A stretch of DNA of 64,000 nucleotides, taken from NCBI GenBank assembly GCA_041662125.1, contig JBAZTA010000002.1, forward strand, positions 140,154 to 204,153. Reading direction: 5' to 3'. This DNA comes from Candidatus Omnitrophota bacterium (GTDB lineage Bacteria > Omnitrophota > Gorgyraeia > Gygaellales > Profunditerraquicolaceae). Below the pieces are notes generated by a model, which did not search any database, was not told where the DNA came from, and worked only from the letters and a program-made list of their open reading frames with translations. Position 1 is the first letter of the stretch. The number at the start of each line of letters is the position of its first letter. Below are positions 3,001 through 44,372 of the stretch, in pieces. A program made the translations under genes and the position numbers.

Positions 3001-6000
3001 TACGCTAAGTCAGCGGATGAGGTCATGGCCTGCGCGTTGCCGCACCGGAAAGATCATTCGTTTGACCTGCTTTCGGCAGAAGGGCTCTTGCGGGAAGCTT
3101 CTCAAAATAAAATAGACGCGCTCGCTATTGGCCCCGGGCTTATCGTGAAAGAAGAACAGTCCCATGAAATTATGTACCGGTTATTAAGAAATATCCAGGT
3201 TCCTCTGGTTTTGGATGCCGGCGCTCTTAATGCTTTGGCGGGCAAGGCTTCAATTTTACGCAATGCCTGGGGCAGGACGGTCATTACGCCGCATATTGTT
3301 GAAATGGCGCGTTTGAGCGGTATACCTGTGGCAGAAATAATGTCGCGTCGTATTGATGTTGCCAGGGAGTTTGCTTGTGCGTACGGGACAGTGGTGGTGC
3401 TCAAGGGCGATGAAAACGATCGCACGCTTGTCGCATGCCCGGATGGAAGCGTCTATAGTAATTCTACCGGAAATAAATATATGGCAAAAGCCGGGATGGG
3501 GGATGTGCTTACCGGAATTATTGTCAGTTTTATCGGACAAGGTTTGTCTTCCCGTGAAGCAGCCGTATTGGGAGTCTATGTGCACGGGTTGGCAGCAGAT
3601 ATGGTTGTAAGCATCCAGAAGAGAAAAAGAGGGCTTCTCCCGACCCATGTGATAGAACAACTCTCCTTTGCCATCGATAGCCTCTGGGAGCATCGGGAAT
3701 CTTTTGTGCACCGTGATAAGGCCGTGCAGATCACGCCTCATGAGTTCAGAAGGATCGCCGCGGTTTATGGGCTGGAAATCGATAGTGATTCGCTTGATTT
3801 TCAAGGATTGAATAATAAGGTCGCCATACTCGATACGCATAATAAAGGCAAGGTCGTCATTAAGAAATCAGTCTGGGATTTAAAAGGCACGCTGTGGGAG
3901 CAAGAGCTTTTCAATAATTTAGCCAACAGGCAATTGCCTGAAATCATATATACGGAAGAAGGCAATGCCGCATATGTGGAAGCAGATGCTATCTTTACCG
4001 TGTATCGATTTGATTCTTTGGGAAGAATTTATGCATACGAAGAATTGACCGCGGAAATGTTTAAAAGTTTGGCTGAGTTTTTGGCCTGGCTGCATGTTTC
4101 TACCATGGATGGAAGAGTGTTGCATGTGCGAGGGGAAAGGATCACCGATCCTGTGGTTAAGTTCGCAGGCGTTGATGATCGTATGCTGAAATTAGACGAA
4201 GCATACCAGCGTTTTATTGCGAAAAACCCTGCCGGGTGGAACTTCGGGGAGCGTCTTTTTGTAGAGCATCAGCCTTTCTTTAAAGAGCAGATAGCTCTTG
4301 CAATACGTCATTTGGCAGGGATATATGAGCGCCTGCCGCGCGCTGTAATTCATGGGGATTTTCGCGCGGAAAACGTGACCATATCCGGTGATCATATTAG
4401 TAAGGTTCTTGACTGGGAAATTGCCAGAGAAGAAGTAAGGGTTTACGATTTGATCCGCAGCCTTTTCTATGACCTGCATAAATCCGGCGCGGAATTCAAT
4501 ATGGATGAGCTAAAAATCTGGGTGATCCTGTATCAGAAAGCAGCAGAGAAGTTCGGATACCCTTTAACGAGGGAAGAAATAATGATTATTCCTGAAATGC
4601 TGCGGCTGAAATTTATACAGCAGTTTAGTTGGCTGGTGCGATGGAATACCATTGAACGCCTTGAACAAGATCAAAATGAAAGACGGTTTTTTGAAAATTT
4701 GATAAAGGCTGCAAAAGTATTGGATGAGCAGGATTGGCAGAAGTTTTTTGCGGATGTTTTATCCGTGAGCAGGTGGGATCCCCGGAACTGCCTGGAAGAA
4801 TATGATTTCGCCCGGAAGAAAATTAATGAGGTAAACGGTAATATTGAGCATGCGGCTGTTTTGGTTGCGCAATACCGGCAAATAAAGAAACAAGATCGTC
4901 CAATTAAAATAAGCGTTTTTGTCCCTACCGCAAACTGCCTGCATAATGCTCATCAACGCCTCATTGAAGTTGCTCAAGATATACGCTTGCCGGGAGGGGA
5001 TCGTTTTGACGAAACAATAGTATTGCTGGGGACCAAACACGCTGAAAAAGAGGTAAAAGGCATGTCGCTTGAGGATAGGATCCTTACGGTCAAGGCTGTT
5101 TTTGATGAACACAAGGCAGAAGGTACGGCTGGAATCGATAAATTATTTTTAGTCAACACTGGCTGGTATTTGGAGATGGTAGTAGCCTTAAAAGCATATT
5201 ACCGGGAAAACTATTTCCAGGAAATCGAAGTTTATTTTATTATTGGAAAAGATTCGATGCAATCAACGCTTGCAAGTGAATTTGGGAAACTGTTGGAAGA
5301 AAGCTATTTTGTGGTAATGGACAGGCAGGGTTCCCGGATCGAAGATACGCTTGAATATAAAGAATTAGTTAAAGAAAAAGATAAAATCCTTACCCTGCAA
5401 TTTATCCCGAAGCCGGAAGAAGCCGATTTATCTTCGTCTAAGATTCGTCAGATGGTTAAGGATGGATTGTCTGTCGGGCGATTGGTTCCCCTGGCTGTTA
5501 ACGCTTTTATTATTGAGACGGGCGTATATCGTGATAGGGAAATGTATGAAGAGCGCCTGGTAAGGCTGGAGAAGATGCTTGAAGGTAGAAGATTGTTAGC
5601 TTCGTCTTCACCCATTACTTTTAAAGATGTAAATATCCTGGGTGTGGAAGAAGAGAAGTTGGGAATACTGCCGCTTATGTTCTTAAAGCAGAATAAAGGA
5701 AATTATCGGTTCGGTTACCAAATTTCAAATGGGCATGGAAGATATTGGGAAGTCAGGCAGCAGAAGACAGTGCGGTATATAGGTAAAGATATAAGGAGTT
5801 TATTTAAGTCTATAGCGGTTAGGCAGGATATTGAACAGTTCGACGCGGCAGGTAATCGAGAGGAGAAGATCGTGATTGTTTTGCCTACGGTTGGCGATCC
5901 TCTATACAAGCAATGGCTTCAGTCGCAGGTGCAAAGCCTGGGGAATCACTATAGGCTTACCTTTGTAGTTAACCTTAGTTTAAAGGATACTCTTGGCCTG

Positions 6001-22946: not shown

Positions 22947-23196
22947 TCTTCCTGTTCCCATTTTCCTCTCTTTTGGAAATATACTTTCCTTTTTTTCTCC
23001 GTCACCCGAGGTGTCCATATATATTGATTTGTTTTTGGAAAAAAGATTGATTATATGCTATAGTTTAATTAGATAGAGTAGTTCGTTCAATATAGTTTTC
23101 AACCTACTGAAAAAGGCAAACTAGCAGTAATGCTGGGGCGCAAAGCGACAGCCCCGATTATTTAATCGGGGGGCTGCGTTGCCAAAGAGGAAAAGC

Positions 23197-23230
23197 AAGC
23201 CCTTGAAAGTGCCTTTGAGGGCTTTTTTCT
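23197..23230 (+). terminator. rho-independent terminator (hairpin gccct/agggc plus a T6 run)
   Basis: The stem-loop aagccctTGAAAGTGCCTTTGAgggctt is followed by tttttt. Confidence 0.45.
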
Positions 23231-23240
23231 TTTCTCACTA

Positions 23241-23272
23241 CCCCGGCTGATTAAGCCGGGGTTTTGTTTTTT
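23241..23272 (+). terminator. rho-independent terminator (8 bp GC-rich stem plus a T-run)
   Basis: ccccggct-gatta-agccgggg is followed by ttttgtttttt. Confidence 0.6.
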
Positions 23273-24452: not shown

Positions 24453-25901
24453 ATGAAGCCGAAAACTTCTTTTGCGCAAAGAATTTTTTTGATCTTGTGT
24501 GGTGTTTTTTTCTTTCTCTTTTCTCTGGAAATTGGATTGCGCCTGAGTGGATTGGTTATTGTATCTGTTTGGGAAAAGCGCAACGAGGTTTCTTTGAGGA
24601 AGCACGGGGCGTACCGGATTATGTGTTTAGGAGAGTCAACCACAGCCGGAAAAGCTGAAGCTTATCCTGCTATGCTTGAAGAAACCCTTAGCCGCCTTGT
24701 GCCGGGGATATCTTTTAGTGTCATTAATTGCGGGATCCCTTCAGTAAATTCCTCCTATATCCTTTCTCATCTTAAGAGTAGCCTCGATAAATATAACCCT
24801 GATATGGTGATTGCGATGATGGGTGTTAATGATGGGGAAGATTATGTTTTCTCCGAGACTAAGCAAACTTCTGCGGTTAAGCTTTTTTTCAGGTCGTTTA
24901 AAGTTTATCGGCTCATGAAGCTGATGATGCGTCATTTGACGAGTAAGATTGGAGCTAAGGGTTTTTCAGGTTTAAACGATTCTGCTGCCCGTCCAACGGG
25001 GTGGTCGATCTTTATAAAGAATGATTTTAGTTGCGCAGGGGTTGGCAGGCGTATTGGCAAACCGGCTCCCGCGATTATTCAGCGTGAGTATCTCAGGGCA
25101 AAAAAAGATTTTGAACGAGGCCAGTATGATCAAGCTGAACAAAGATACAAGAGAATAATTGAGCTGAACCCGGACAATGATGAGGCATATCTTGAGTACG
25201 CGTTATTTTATCAGAAACAGGATAAATTTCCGCAAGTTGTCGCGCTGCTGCAAAAGGCCATTGATTTAGCCCCTCATAAAGGAATGGCCTATGTATACTT
25301 AGGTTGGTGTTATGAGCAAATGCACGCATATGATAAGGCACAAAGAATGTTCAGAAAAGCTGCTGAAGTAGAGCCGCGTAATCCCGAAGCATATATCGGG
25401 TTAGGGTATTTGTGCGAGCGTCAGGGGTTATATGCAAAGGCTGAGCCTTTATTTAAGAAGGCGGTGGGTTTAAATCCTATGTACGAGAACCGGAGTTATA
25501 AATTCTTGATAGGTTTATATAGAAGCACGGGTGATAATGCTCGTGCAGAGGGATATTCTCGTTTGATAGGAAAACGAAACTATTATAATTCGGTGACAAT
25601 GGGTAATTATCAAAAGCTGAAAAATATTGTGGTTGATGAACGGGGAAAGAAGCTTGTATGCATGTCCTATCCCTTGGAAAGCATAGATCCACTGAGAAGG
25701 TTATTTGACGGGCAGCCGGATGTTATCCTGGTGGATAATGGGCATGTTTTTAAAGACGCGGTAGAAAAAGAAGGGTGTAACTCCTATTTTATTGATATGT
25801 TTGCCGGTAGTTTCGGGCATTGCACAAAAAAGGGCAATAATTTTTTAGCGAACAATGTCGCTAAGGCCATCGTAAAGGTATTAGAGAAGGCGCAGCCGTG
25901 A
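24453..25901 (+). CDS. SGNH/GDSL-like hydrolase with inserted TPR repeats and an N-terminal TM anchor
   Basis: Block I is CLGESTT, block III is MMGVNDG, and the C-terminal block V is VILVDNGHV. TPR-like repeats (EAYLEYALFYQKQDKF, MAYVYLGWCYEQ, EAYIGLGYLCERQG) lie between them. Confidence 0.55.
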   Translation: MKPKTSFAQRIFLILCGVFFFLFSLEIGLRLSGLVIVSVWEKRNEVSLRKHGAYRIMCLGESTTAGKAEAYPAMLEETLSRLVPGISFSVINCGIPSVNSSYILSHLKSSLDKYNPDMVIAMMGVNDGEDYVFSETKQTSAVKLFFRSFKVYRLMKLMMRHLTSKIGAKGFSGLNDSAARPTGWSIFIKNDFSCAGVGRRIGKPAPAIIQREYLRAKKDFERGQYDQAEQRYKRIIELNPDNDEAYLEYALFYQKQDKFPQVVALLQKAIDLAPHKGMAYVYLGWCYEQMHAYDKAQRMFRKAAEVEPRNPEAYIGLGYLCERQGLYAKAEPLFKKAVGLNPMYENRSYKFLIGLYRSTGDNARAEGYSRLIGKRNYYNSVTMGNYQKLKNIVVDERGKKLVCMSYPLESIDPLRRLFDGQPDVILVDNGHVFKDAVEKEGCNSYFIDMFAGSFGHCTKKGNNFLANNVAKAIVKVLEKAQP

Positions 25902-42219: not shown

Positions 42220-42855
42220 ATGAAGCATCTAAAAATTATTTTTATAGCTTTTTTGATCGGCATAACCATATTTACTGTTTATATGTATATTGCTTCACTA
42301 CAGGAAAAATATGATATGCTCACTACACTTGAGAAAATAAAGGTTGAAGTCGTTTCTTTGAAAAATGAAAATCAGAACCTTTTAGTTTCTCTGGGGAATG
42401 AAAAAACGCTTAATAATTCTTTAACTGCTGAAAATGCCGGGCTCAAAGAAGAGCTGTTAGCCGGTGAAGAGAAACTGAATAAGCTGGGTGAGGAGTTTCA
42501 GTCAGCGCTTAAGAATATCGAAGAGCTGAATAATGAGGTTGTTGCTTTAAAAGCTGAAAATGTGTCTTTGGCAAACCAGAAAGAAATAATGACCCTCCAG
42601 GTGGCTCAGGTTGCCCAGGAAAAGAAAGATTTAGAAGAAAAAATGGATTCAGTAGTTGAACTCAAGAAGATGATCAGGAATTTAAAAAAGCACGTGCGTA
42701 AAACCACTAAAGAAGTCAAAACATTGGTTAAAATAGAAAAGGTAAAAGCAGCTCAACTGCGCGAGATGCTTGGAAACAACGGTTATATTATCAGGGACGG
42801 AAAACCGACGTTTTCTCCCCGGATTAAGATACAAGTCGAGCCGATCTCACAATAA
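42220..42855 (+). CDS. membrane-anchored coiled-coil protein, hypothetical
   Basis: An N-terminal TM helix is followed by heptad repeats rich in E, K and L. Confidence 0.45.
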   Translation: MKHLKIIFIAFLIGITIFTVYMYIASLQEKYDMLTTLEKIKVEVVSLKNENQNLLVSLGNEKTLNNSLTAENAGLKEELLAGEEKLNKLGEEFQSALKNIEELNNEVVALKAENVSLANQKEIMTLQVAQVAQEKKDLEEKMDSVVELKKMIRNLKKHVRKTTKEVKTLVKIEKVKAAQLREMLGNNGYIIRDGKPTFSPRIKIQVEPISQ

Positions 42856-42865
42856 AATCATAGCT

Positions 42866-43318
42866 ATGGACAACATTTTTACCCAGTTTTACCATAACAA
42901 GATCTTGATGGTTACGCTGGTGAGCTGGGTAGCTGCTCAGACCGTCAAAGTCATCATCGGTGTTATTAAAGAAAAGAAATTTGATTTTCGCTGGTTTATA
43001 GGAACTGGCGGGATGCCGTCCAGCCACACTGCCGGAGCCTCCTGTTTAGCAACGGCGATCGGTTTATCAGAAGGGTTTAATAGTGTTGATTTCGCGCTCG
43101 CCGCGTCATTTGCGATCGTGGTCATGTTTGACGCTCAGGGGGTCAGGCGTTCTGCCGGCAAACAGGCGTCGATTTTAAATAAGATAATGGAAGACATATA
43201 TTGGCAAGGCAAGATCCAGGAAGGGCGGCTGCGGGAATTAGTCGGCCACACTCCTATTGAAGTTATCGGCGGATTCTTGTTGGGAGTTGTCATAGCGATT
43301 ACCGCGCAACTGATTTAA
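42866..43318 (+). CDS. divergent PAP2 / DUF212 (YuiD-like) membrane protein
   Basis: The family hallmarks FIGTGGMPSSHTAGASCLATAIGL and VVMFDAQGVRRSAGKQA are present. Confidence 0.6.
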   Translation: MDNIFTQFYHNKILMVTLVSWVAAQTVKVIIGVIKEKKFDFRWFIGTGGMPSSHTAGASCLATAIGLSEGFNSVDFALAASFAIVVMFDAQGVRRSAGKQASILNKIMEDIYWQGKIQEGRLRELVGHTPIEVIGGFLLGVVIAITAQLI

Positions 43319-43319
43319 G

Positions 43320-43560
43320 TGATGTAACACCCCGCGCTAAGAGGCACCCAGCCTAATTGGTGTGGCTGGGTGTGCGGCTTTCTGCCGTAAATTGCGCGGG
43401 CACTTGCCTTAATTGGATAGGCAAGTACGCCGCTTTCTGCGGCGTGTTTCACTTACTGTGAACACCCCACGCTAATTGGAATTGCGTGGGTATGCGCCTT
43501 TCTGCTTACACCCGGCGCTTATAGGTATTGCGCCGGTGTTTCACTTACTGCGAAAGGAGT
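43320..43560. repeat. array of 4 degenerate tandem repeats of about 55-65 nt, each a hairpin with a conserved TAATTGG-like loop and a GCTTTCTGC tail
   Basis: The hairpins are cacccagcc-TAATTGGTG-tggctgggtg, gcacttgcc-TTAATTGGATA-ggcaagtac, ccccacgc-TAATTGGAATT-gcgtgggt and acccggcgc-TTATAGGTATT-gcgccggtg. Each is followed by gc(g/c)(g/c)ctttctgc. gtttcacttactg(t/c)gaa occurs twice. Confidence 0.6.
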
Positions 43561-43565
43561 CATAG

Positions 43566-44372
43566 GTGAGAAGAATTCTTGTGATCATAATCCCTCTGGT
43601 TTTAATTATAGCGGTGGTTTTCCTGGTACTTAAAATGAGTTCGCATACCATGCCTCAACAGCTTAAGGGAGGGTCTGTTCCATCGTTACTCAGTCAGGCA
43701 AAAGACCTTGAAGCTCAGGGGAAAATTCTTGAGGCTAAAAACGTATACGTAAAATTGATCGGTGATTTTTCCAGTTCACGCGATATGTCTTCTTGGCAGA
43801 AGAAAGTCGAAGAACTGAATATAAAACTGCTTTTTTCTCCTGAAATCATCCCCCGGACGACCGCGTATGAAATAAAGCCGGGAGATACGCTGAGCAAGAT
43901 CGCTAAAGAATTTAAGACGACCCCTGATCTGATCATTAAAAGTAATAATTTAGCCAATGATCTGATCATTCCCGGGAAAAAACTTAAAGTATGGACCGTC
44001 CGGTTTACGATAATGGTAGATAAATCTCAGAATGTCCTTTTGCTTAAAACTGAAGATGAGATCCTCAAGACCTATACGGTTTCCACCGGGCTTAATAATT
44101 CCACTCCTGTCGGGACGTTTAAGATCATTAATAAATTGCAGAACCCGACATGGTTTAAGGCAGGGGCGGTGGTAGCTCCGGGGAGCGCCGAGAATGTCCT
44201 GGGCACCCGCTGGCTCGGGTTCAATATCCCCGGTTATGGTATTCATGGTACTGTTGAACCGGAGAAACTGGGGCAGCAGGTGACACAAGGGTGTGTGCGG
44301 ATGTTGAATACGGATGTTGAGGAGCTTTACACGATCGTGCCTGTGGATACCGAAGTAACCATCGTTGATTAA
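43566..44372 (+). CDS. LysM-domain L,D-transpeptidase (YkuD family)
   Basis: The ORF has a GTG start with an AAAGGAG SD, a signal anchor, the LysM block GDTLSKIAKEF, and the catalytic GYGIHGT...GCVRM (His/Cys) of L,D-transpeptidases. Confidence 0.75.
   Translation: MRRILVIIIPLVLIIAVVFLVLKMSSHTMPQQLKGGSVPSLLSQAKDLEAQGKILEAKNVYVKLIGDFSSSRDMSSWQKKVEELNIKLLFSPEIIPRTTAYEIKPGDTLSKIAKEFKTTPDLIIKSNNLANDLIIPGKKLKVWTVRFTIMVDKSQNVLLLKTEDEILKTYTVSTGLNNSTPVGTFKIINKLQNPTWFKAGAVVAPGSAENVLGTRWLGFNIPGYGIHGTVEPEKLGQQVTQGCVRMLNTDVEELYTIVPVDTEVTIVD

Follow-up and report, generated by a model that had tools for sequence, protein, structure and literature searches.

The REP and BIME elements of enterobacteria and pseudomonads are imperfect palindromes of about 30 nt that exist in many extragenic copies, often within operons, and are accompanied by REP-associated tyrosine transposases (RAYTs). 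Their clusters mix motif types, their stems vary while the hairpin is kept, and they are transcribed within mRNAs. The MIRUs of Mycobacterium are intercistronic units of 40 to 100 nt, oriented with the genes and variable in copy number, in which small open reading frames (ORFs) bridge the stop codon of one gene and the start codon of the next. In Streptococcus pneumoniae, BOX elements are assembled from boxA, boxB(n), and boxC, with a 45-nt middle module present in variable tandem number. Several hairpins exposing GGA in their loops also characterize the leaders bound by CsrA/Rsm and the sponge RNAs CsrB and RsmZ.

Here, we analyzed a hairpin array located immediately upstream of a gene for a LysM-YkuD L,D-transpeptidase (ldt) within a 64,000-nucleotide stretch of Omnitrophota DNA, referred to below as the window. 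A first-pass annotation of this stretch had described four successive hairpins, with their loops and repeated motifs, and all of them were present at the positions that it gave. The array is a local tandem and nested pile-up of a module, some 55 nt long, whose other copies are scattered over the genomes of Omnitrophota. We therefore describe the locus together with its dispersed relatives, and weigh what the module may do against the ways in which it may spread.

Results

Anatomy of the array upstream of ldt

A DUF212 gene and ldt are separated by a spacer (43319-43565) that the array occupies, and array and genes share the plus strand. Downstream of ldt come accA, a PadR-family gene, and a response-regulator gene. 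Between positions 43327 and 43559, the window contains five A hairpins with conserved loops, including one that is nested inside another, together with five B hairpins of small size (Table 1). Together they make up four head-to-tail units, spaced by 57, 64, and 46 nt, and one nested unit. The B hairpins follow either the pattern GCNGC-TTTCT-GNNGC or the longer pattern GTTTCRC-TTWCT-GYGAA, and two of the five A loops of the window carry GGU instead of GGA. Matches to model R1 were obtained at 43342-43389 (A1, 35.4 bits), 43398-43444 (A2, 25.3 bits), 43460-43505 (A3, 43.1 bits), and 43506-43559 (A4, 62.7 bits, E value of 6e-17). The array is richer in G+C than the window (53.8% versus 43%), and its plus strand folds at -115.9 kcal/mol compared to -86.3 +/- 5.1 kcal/mol in shuffled sequences (z = -5.8). 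Folding of the minus strand is just as favorable (z = -7.9).

TABLE 1 Hairpins of the array and the two genes that flank it (window coordinates)
Feature	Position	Strand	Description
DUF212 gene	42770..43318	+	Directly upstream; PF02681 in syntenic loci
Outer A-type hairpin	43331..43400	+	Inverted repeat; CCCGCGC (43331-37) pairs with GCGCGGG (43394-400)
Hairpin A1	43345-53 / 43364-72	+	CACCCAGCC / GGCTGGGTG, loop TAATTGGTGT; 9 bp, 100% complementary
Hairpin B1	43374..43388	+	GCGGC-TTTCT-GCCGT; fold and direct-repeat family
Hairpin A2	43402-09 / 43419-26	+	ACTTGCCT / AGGCAAGT, loop TAATTGGAT; inverted repeat
Hairpin B2	43427..43445	+	ACGCCGC-TTTCT-GCGGCGT; 7-bp inverted repeat
Long B hairpin, copy 1	43446..43465	+	GTTTCAC-TTACT-GTGAAC(AC)
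Hairpin A3	43466-72 / 43484-90	+	CCCACGC / GCGTGGG, canonical loop TAATTGGAATT; fits the genome-wide pattern
Degenerate B3 tail	43492..43507	+	ATGCGCCTTTCTGCTT
Hairpin A4	43512-18 / 43530-36	+	CCGGCGC / GCGCCGG, loop TTATAGGTATT; belongs to the last unit, which is canonical
Long B hairpin, copy 2	43538..43559	+	GTTTCAC-TTACT-GCGAAA; runs into the Shine-Dalgarno AGGAG (43555-59)
LysM-YkuD L,D-transpeptidase gene (ldt)	43566..44372	+	GTG start; served by the terminal array unit

In the minimum-energy fold, the half-loops TAAGAG and TAAATT of the outer A hairpin enclose unit 1 as a nested copy, forming a three-way junction, and the same nesting was found in loci L003, L017, L117, L121, L122, L124, and L125. 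The same fold pairs the CCUUUC of the degenerate B3 tail with GAAAGG at the Shine-Dalgarno sequence. The tail of the form GC..CTTTCTGC that the first-pass annotation had placed after every unit is indeed present behind units 1 to 3, whereas unit 4 is followed by the hairpin GTTTCAC-TTACT-GCGAAA. That annotation had overlooked that these tails are B hairpins, that a fifth A-type stem surrounds unit 1, and that the last unit meets AGGAG and the GTG codon. As it had reported, a second motif occurs twice: GTTTCACTTACTGYGAA is repeated at 43446-62 and 43538-54, with 0.18 occurrences expected by chance. GCNNCTTTCTGC is found three times as an exact match in the array; a fourth exact match, at 51203-14, lies inside a coding region and was put down to chance. 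The stem orthologous to the first long B hairpin reads TTTCGC / GCGAA in L003 and L017, both arms having changed.

The terminal unit carries or abuts the Shine-Dalgarno sequence of ldt, and the array runs directly into the GTG start. This start is supported by the presence of the Shine-Dalgarno sequence and by full-length homologues, which span 100% of the product when it is read from the GTG at 43566. The public call of the gene (P0001, 240 amino acids [aa]; JGI) begins at 43650, i.e., 28 codons downstream; because the gene caller picked this later start, the full protein is without an exact database record. No ORF bridges the array, several stops being present in all three frames of 43319-43568, and no promoter-like or terminator-like site within it rose above chance; the B stems are too variable to accommodate a -10 box. 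Neither motif searches nor model R1, run with its filters off, revealed a second array site in the 64-kb window, and weak matches at 25710, 46799, and 23238 were rejected as copies.

A search with Rfam 15, using gathering thresholds on the whole window and E values up to 10 at the locus, returned no family for the array, in agreement with the initial remark that it was not recognized as a known element. The locus matches at E values up to 10, to miRNA and anti-hemB families, represent chance only. Elsewhere in the window, Rfam recognized only a c-di-GMP-I-GGC riboswitch, located at 23106-23187 (+), which scored 63.9 bits (gathering score, 59); it is followed by two G+C-rich hairpins (23197-23224 and 23240-23262) and a T run, which look like its expression platform. 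The literature on Omnitrophota hairpins, RNA motifs, REP elements, CsrA, or the loop sequence yielded nothing relevant. No description of this repeat family, which is akin to short interspersed palindromic repeats, was thus found in Rfam 15 or in the literature. The exclusion of a CRISPR also stands, since the units differ in their stems, lack spacers, and nest within one another, and no identical repeats are present.

Both hairpins are conserved as structures

The two-hairpin structure was evaluated over 58 units, in which 93.8% of the cells were paired and 10 of the 15 pairs changed on both sides; none of 500 shuffles reached this level, and slid registers collapsed. The stems thus covary beneath conserved loops, which supports selection on the structure, as proposed from the letters of the window. 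For helix A in the lineage of the window, pair 9-79 was represented by all four Watson-Crick types (GC 26, CG 19, AT 7, and TA 6). In the broader family, hairpin A is almost invariant in sequence, and hairpin B retains its pairing among 89 distinct sequences in about 115 copies from the matches listed. The B hairpins that precede rpsC, rpmI, dnaN, comM, and ribH are among those in which orthologues from different species differ by paired changes. Both hairpins are therefore conserved as structures.

In helix A, G.U pairs outnumbered A.C pairs by 11 to 2 and by 8 to 1 in two overlapping sequence sets, an excess that favors pairing as sense-strand RNA. Stem variants recur between copies, however, and copy replacement, which can change both arms at once, can partly yield covariation without stepwise compensation. 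Covariation within one array is consequently weaker evidence than it had appeared.

The module is dispersed before unrelated genes of Omnitrophota

Hairpin A was described by the pattern CACCCNNNNCNNATTGGAATWGNNNNGGT, which contains 19 fixed bases, and searched in a species-representative genome set of 596 Gb. It matched at least 114 stretches, compared to about 2 expected by chance according to our own calculation. Among the matches listed, which came from 52 assemblies, about 46 assemblies were labeled Omnitrophota or had canonical Omnitrophota-type loci, and six appeared to be chance matches in other phyla. A single assembly contributed up to 8 of the listed stretches, the genome of L003 accounting for 6 of them, and an identical 29-nt hairpin A was present at 36 loci in 22 of the listed assemblies. 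No match to the element was detected in viral contigs. The long B hairpin of the lineage, searched as GGTGTTTCRCTTNCTGYGAAAGG, retrieved 43 further metagenome stretches, nine of them from metagenome Ga0265297. About 35 of the 43 had the layout of A, long B, AAAGGAG, and start before other genes, and about half of these window-lineage stretches were arrays of 2 to 7 units. The unit is hence scattered over many intergenic sites of Omnitrophota, which the first-pass annotation had anticipated as the mark of a plain REP-like repeat. In a metagenome-assembled genome labeled Firmicutes, locus L083 (5514-5680, minus strand) carries three tandem units of about 57 nt with a weak model match of 20 to 27 bits, and these are probably unrelated.

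The module usually occurs as a single unit, composed of AAGR, hairpin A, hairpin B, a Shine-Dalgarno sequence (AAGGAGG or AAAGGAG), and a start codon. Its canonical layout is AAGR / CACCC(C/G)GCGC-TAATTGGAATT-GCGC(G/C)GGGT / GTTGTCTAGGTAGACAAGGAGG / 5 to 9 nt / ATG. Hairpin A has a 7+2-bp stem (CACCCnnCGC / GCGnnGGGTG) and an A/U-rich loop of 10 to 12 nt with an invariant GG, usually GGA; the stem of hairpin B is variable, and the start codon most often lies 26 to 30 nt past A. Conservation runs from -4 to about +22, which gives a module of about 55 nt. A Shine-Dalgarno sequence and a start codon follow on the same strand within 150 nt in 91 of the 123 distinct matches listed, about 60 of them at 21 to 35 nt after A. 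When these listed matches were viewed as 123 clusters, 93 were followed within 60 nt by the start of a gene on the same strand, 77 were preceded within 60 nt by the end of one, and 3 were convergent. Many of the exceptions are units that are cut by the end of the locus, that precede short genes, or that another repeat separates from the start. A second repeat family (ccccctcgcgggagctcggggtcatttttccccaagcgccggaggctggggaaaaATGAGGAGG) intervenes between the A/B units and the start codon in L035, L069, and L116, sometimes as two tandem copies.

The genes served are unrelated to each other and often have housekeeping functions. From their N-terminal sequences, we take them to include rpsC, rpmI, groEL, ssb, dnaN, greA, carB, glyA, ndk, ribH, phoU, and accB, and those behind the GGTGTTTCRCTTNCTGYGAAAGG stretches presumably include rpsF, rplL, slyD, and ilvC, among others. 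Several copies depart from this arrangement. Units stand directly before tRNA-Gly genes in L086, L110, and L120, where the 3' arm of B overlaps the 5' end of the tRNA (GCGGGAG), and one unit in L113 precedes what we judged by eye to be a cobalamin-riboswitch-like sequence; the module is thus not limited to protein-coding starts. At L026 (5308-5363, plus strand), an antisense copy with its own AAAGGAG and no gene behind it lies between two minus-strand ORFs, presumably pstS and pstC. At L099 (4376-4424) and in the orthologous L101, an 862-aa ORF contains an in-frame A+B unit that lacks a Shine-Dalgarno sequence and encodes STPRLLELRGCSPGGE; this could be a tolerated insertion or a fusion of two genes. 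The tRNA-Gly copies and the orphan of L026 argue that placement follows GGAG-like sequence and not translational need, and the odd copies reveal a module that moves, or is copied, in one piece.

Gain, loss, and multiplication of units

The Ldt protein assigns the window to Omnitrophota. Where Ldt is 78 to 85% identical (L001/L017 and L003/L004), the gene order is the same and a similar but longer array is present. Where it is 60 to 68% identical (L005 to L012), the gene order is again the same and the spacer measures only 19 to 35 nt with a plain Shine-Dalgarno sequence; the covariance model found no match in these loci, the array being absent from them. In L011 (1817-2000), the spacer between the DUF212 gene and ldt contains another kind of repeat, which is about 165 nt long and has many inverted repeats (AATGACTAATGAC... 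/ ...GTCATTCATTCGACATTCGTCATT). L010 and L012, whose Ldt protein is identical to that of L011, lack it. The short spacers of the distant relatives and the variable repeat of L011 indicate that this spacer is an insertion hotspot and that the array is specific to its lineage.

Alignment of the arrays of the window, L017, and L003 revealed indels of one exact 45-nt A+B unit, of about 100 nt at the 5' end, and of 20 nt, and the orthologous hairpins of the three arrays differed on both arms. The suggestion that the array was not a recent duplication is therefore half right: close relatives differ by whole units. The 20-nt indel corresponds to a third hairpin, C, inside a B loop. Hairpin C, a CCTGCCTRNCGGCAGG-like palindrome, was seen at 3685-3704 and 3846-3865 of L017 and also in L102, L106, L127, and L149, either in B loops or beside units. 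Tandem and nested copies were found outside the ldt locus as well. Elsewhere, nested copies always split an A loop into a TNNGG half and an AATT half, and some of the nesting A loops resemble a Shine-Dalgarno sequence, e.g., TTAAGAGGAATT. Filled and empty states of an orthologous site were also observed, an acrB-like gene having a unit in L039 and the acrB-like gene of the window having none. Together, these differences show that genomes acquire, lose, and amplify the module in unit-sized increments.

Possible insertion signature and candidate mobilizing enzyme

Miniature elements derived from IS200/IS605 enter on the 3' side of a particular tetranucleotide, in a single orientation and without duplicating the target, and occur as both filled and empty alleles. 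The dispersed copies of the module have a conserved AAGR left flank, no duplication, and presence/absence differences at orthologous sites, with no filled and empty pair close enough to fix the junctions. A target-site duplication was considered since the left-hand AAGR resembles the right-hand AAGG; nested copies have no right-hand GG, so that no duplication can be claimed.

Locus L163 encodes, at 214-612, a 132-aa Y1 (IS200-like) transposase that matched PF01797 (E value of 9e-26) and NF033573 (80.5 bits) and scored 40.7 bits with the REP_Tyr_transpos model, for which the cutoff is 80. Those of its homologues that have source names all come from Omnitrophota, and nearly all were seen on one contig, apparently as single copies. 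In the contexts examined (L163, L170, L171/L172, and L173), the Y1 gene sits in an operon-like arrangement, packed between neighbors with no room for element ends, and in two of these four contexts, L170 and L173, it lies beside a radical-SAM (UPF0004) gene. The Y1 transposase thus resembles a domesticated transposase. Model R1, run with filters off, placed no unit beside the Y1 genes of L163 and L170 to L173 (five contexts). Because the Y1 genes examined are not flanked by the module, the link to RAYTs is a lead and not a finding.

Discussion

From comparisons of sequence and predicted structure, we consider it probable that the array and its dispersed relatives are a REP/BIME-like hairpin module that changes in copy number, is tied to ribosome-binding sites, and is transcribed as part of mRNA leaders. 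The module would act as sense-strand RNA, either in an mRNA leader or in the spacer between two cistrons. Hairpin A may show its GGA loop to a trans-acting factor, which could be the 30S subunit, through the anti-Shine-Dalgarno sequence, or a GGA-binding protein, and hairpin B may stack on the Shine-Dalgarno sequence and keep upstream structure off it. The two hairpins together could then set the translation initiation or the mRNA stability of the downstream gene. Units would spread by copy-and-paste or by duplication, in some cases entering an A loop at its Shine-Dalgarno-like sequence, and arrays would result. The equal folding of both strands and the two GGU loops out of five in the window count against this reading, as do the share of covariation that copy replacement may produce, the copies before tRNA-Gly genes and the orphan of L026, the negative outcome of a low-power search for CsrA, Hfq, and FliW in 1.19 Mb of sampled DNA, and the presence of a single such locus in the 64-kb window. 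A further-reaching version, in which the module is a self-propagating portable leader used phylum-wide, its A loop read by the 30S subunit at a standby site or by a CsrA-like protein and its arrays, as versions of high avidity, tuning or titrating that factor, is speculative and seems to us rather unlikely to hold in full.

An alternative that deserves serious weight, even if we hold it to be less than probable, is that the module is a selfish palindromic DNA element, REP/RAYT-like or a miniature derived from IS200/IS605, that inserts as single-stranded DNA beside purine-rich AAGR or GGAGG. Where it lies relative to genes, and which way it points, would then simply reflect the target sequence, and any effect as RNA would be incidental. 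Such an element would account for the presence/absence differences at orthologous sites, the conserved AAGR left flank without target duplication, and the insertions nested in Shine-Dalgarno-like A loops, as well as for the identical hairpin A at 36 of the loci listed. The copies before tRNA-Gly (5' GCGGGAG), the antisense orphan, and the in-frame copy in the 862-aa ORF agree with it too, and a candidate enzyme is encoded by the Y1 transposase gene (PF01797), which is apparently present in single copy and for which every named homologue belongs to Omnitrophota. However, the Y1 genes examined have no flanking element, and the element is absent from viral contigs. Hairpin B, in addition, is diverse among the copies listed and yet paired, with paired changes between orthologues, a diversity that fits selection on structure and not recent copying, and G.U exceeds A.C on the sense strand.

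The GGA loops also bring to mind a global regulator of the CsrA/Rsm type that binds GGA. Arrays such as this one would serve as its sponge or as a leader of high avidity, titrating the protein, and single units would be operators on many mRNAs. In A loops, GG, mostly as GGA, is central, and a second GGA lies in the Shine-Dalgarno sequence about 30 nt downstream; the combination of a GGA in a central loop with one in the Shine-Dalgarno sequence at this spacing is the geometry of CsrA-repressed leaders. Arrays of 2 to 7 units are, moreover, common in the lineage of the window. Nevertheless, a tblastn search for CsrA, Hfq, and FliW, which is of low power in the 1.19 Mb of sampled DNA, gave no match, the loops measure 10 to 12 nt where a hexaloop is usual, their flanking bases fit the SELEX consensus poorly, and GGU replaces GGA in two of the five loops here. 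The array also lacks a terminator of its own and leads straight into the ldt start. We regard this regulator-specific reading as improbable, and a separate sRNA or sponge is likewise unlikely; nothing points to a separate RNA gene. Least credible of all, and in our judgment already excluded, is a riboswitch, attenuator, or operator array that controls ldt specifically. The array is highly structured and immediately upstream of ldt, as such a device would be, but it is absent from orthologues that are 60 to 68% identical and have the same gene order, the same module stands before dozens of unrelated genes, and there is neither an Rfam match nor a terminator above chance. Among the candidates listed in the first-pass annotation, the REP/BIME-like element is the only one to survive, the sRNA, the decoy array, and the ldt-specific operators having found no supporting evidence.

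If the REP/BIME-like module is active as RNA, it would constitute a phylum-wide standardized leader before many housekeeping genes of Omnitrophota and a natural counterpart of the engineered insulators that are placed before ribosome-binding sites. To our knowledge, Omnitrophota have never been cultured, and the module would then offer a route into translation control in a phylum without cultures. If it is only selfish DNA, it would still be unusual in docking on Shine-Dalgarno-like sequence and nesting in its own loop. In practice, the module marks true start codons, and it explains assembly breaks and hotspots of variable repeat number in the Omnitrophota genomes that carry it.

Comparison with known systems

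Compared to the systems described above, the array resembles CsrA/Rsm leaders and the CsrB and RsmZ RNAs in that its hairpins show GGA loops and a further GGA is present in the Shine-Dalgarno sequence. Unlike CsrB and RsmZ, which form their own transcription unit with a promoter and an intrinsic terminator, it abuts a Shine-Dalgarno sequence and a GTG codon, its loops are larger, and some of them carry GGU. The nearest counterparts of the module are REP/BIME, MIRU, and BOX repeats, which it matches in size, in dispersal between genes, and in modular clustering. With BOX, the module shares a modular, strongly folding, intergenic nature and the lack of its own transposase, whereas BOX sequences are unrelated to it, and BOX elements are tied neither to ribosome-binding sites nor to a single orientation. 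The similarity to MIRUs lies in the location between operon genes, in the same orientation, with a copy number that varies among close relatives; in contrast to the small bridging ORF of MIRUs, the array has stops in all three frames, and conserved-loop hairpins are not a defining feature of MIRUs. REP and BIME elements alternate or invert in orientation, begin with a 5' tetranucleotide of the GTAG type, and have a RAYT gene flanked by REPs, whereas the units of the module run head to tail and are co-oriented with the downstream gene, their foot is AAGR followed by CACCC, and the five Y1 contexts are without the module. Unlike REP and BIME elements, the module is also fixed at 26 to 30 nt from the start codon and runs into the Shine-Dalgarno sequence. 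What it has in common with them, besides clusters of mixed motif types, stems that vary under a retained hairpin, and a probable transcription within mRNAs, is its basic form, that of a short repeated extragenic palindrome, in this case a 29-nt hairpin A found in at least 114 stretches from about 46 assemblies.
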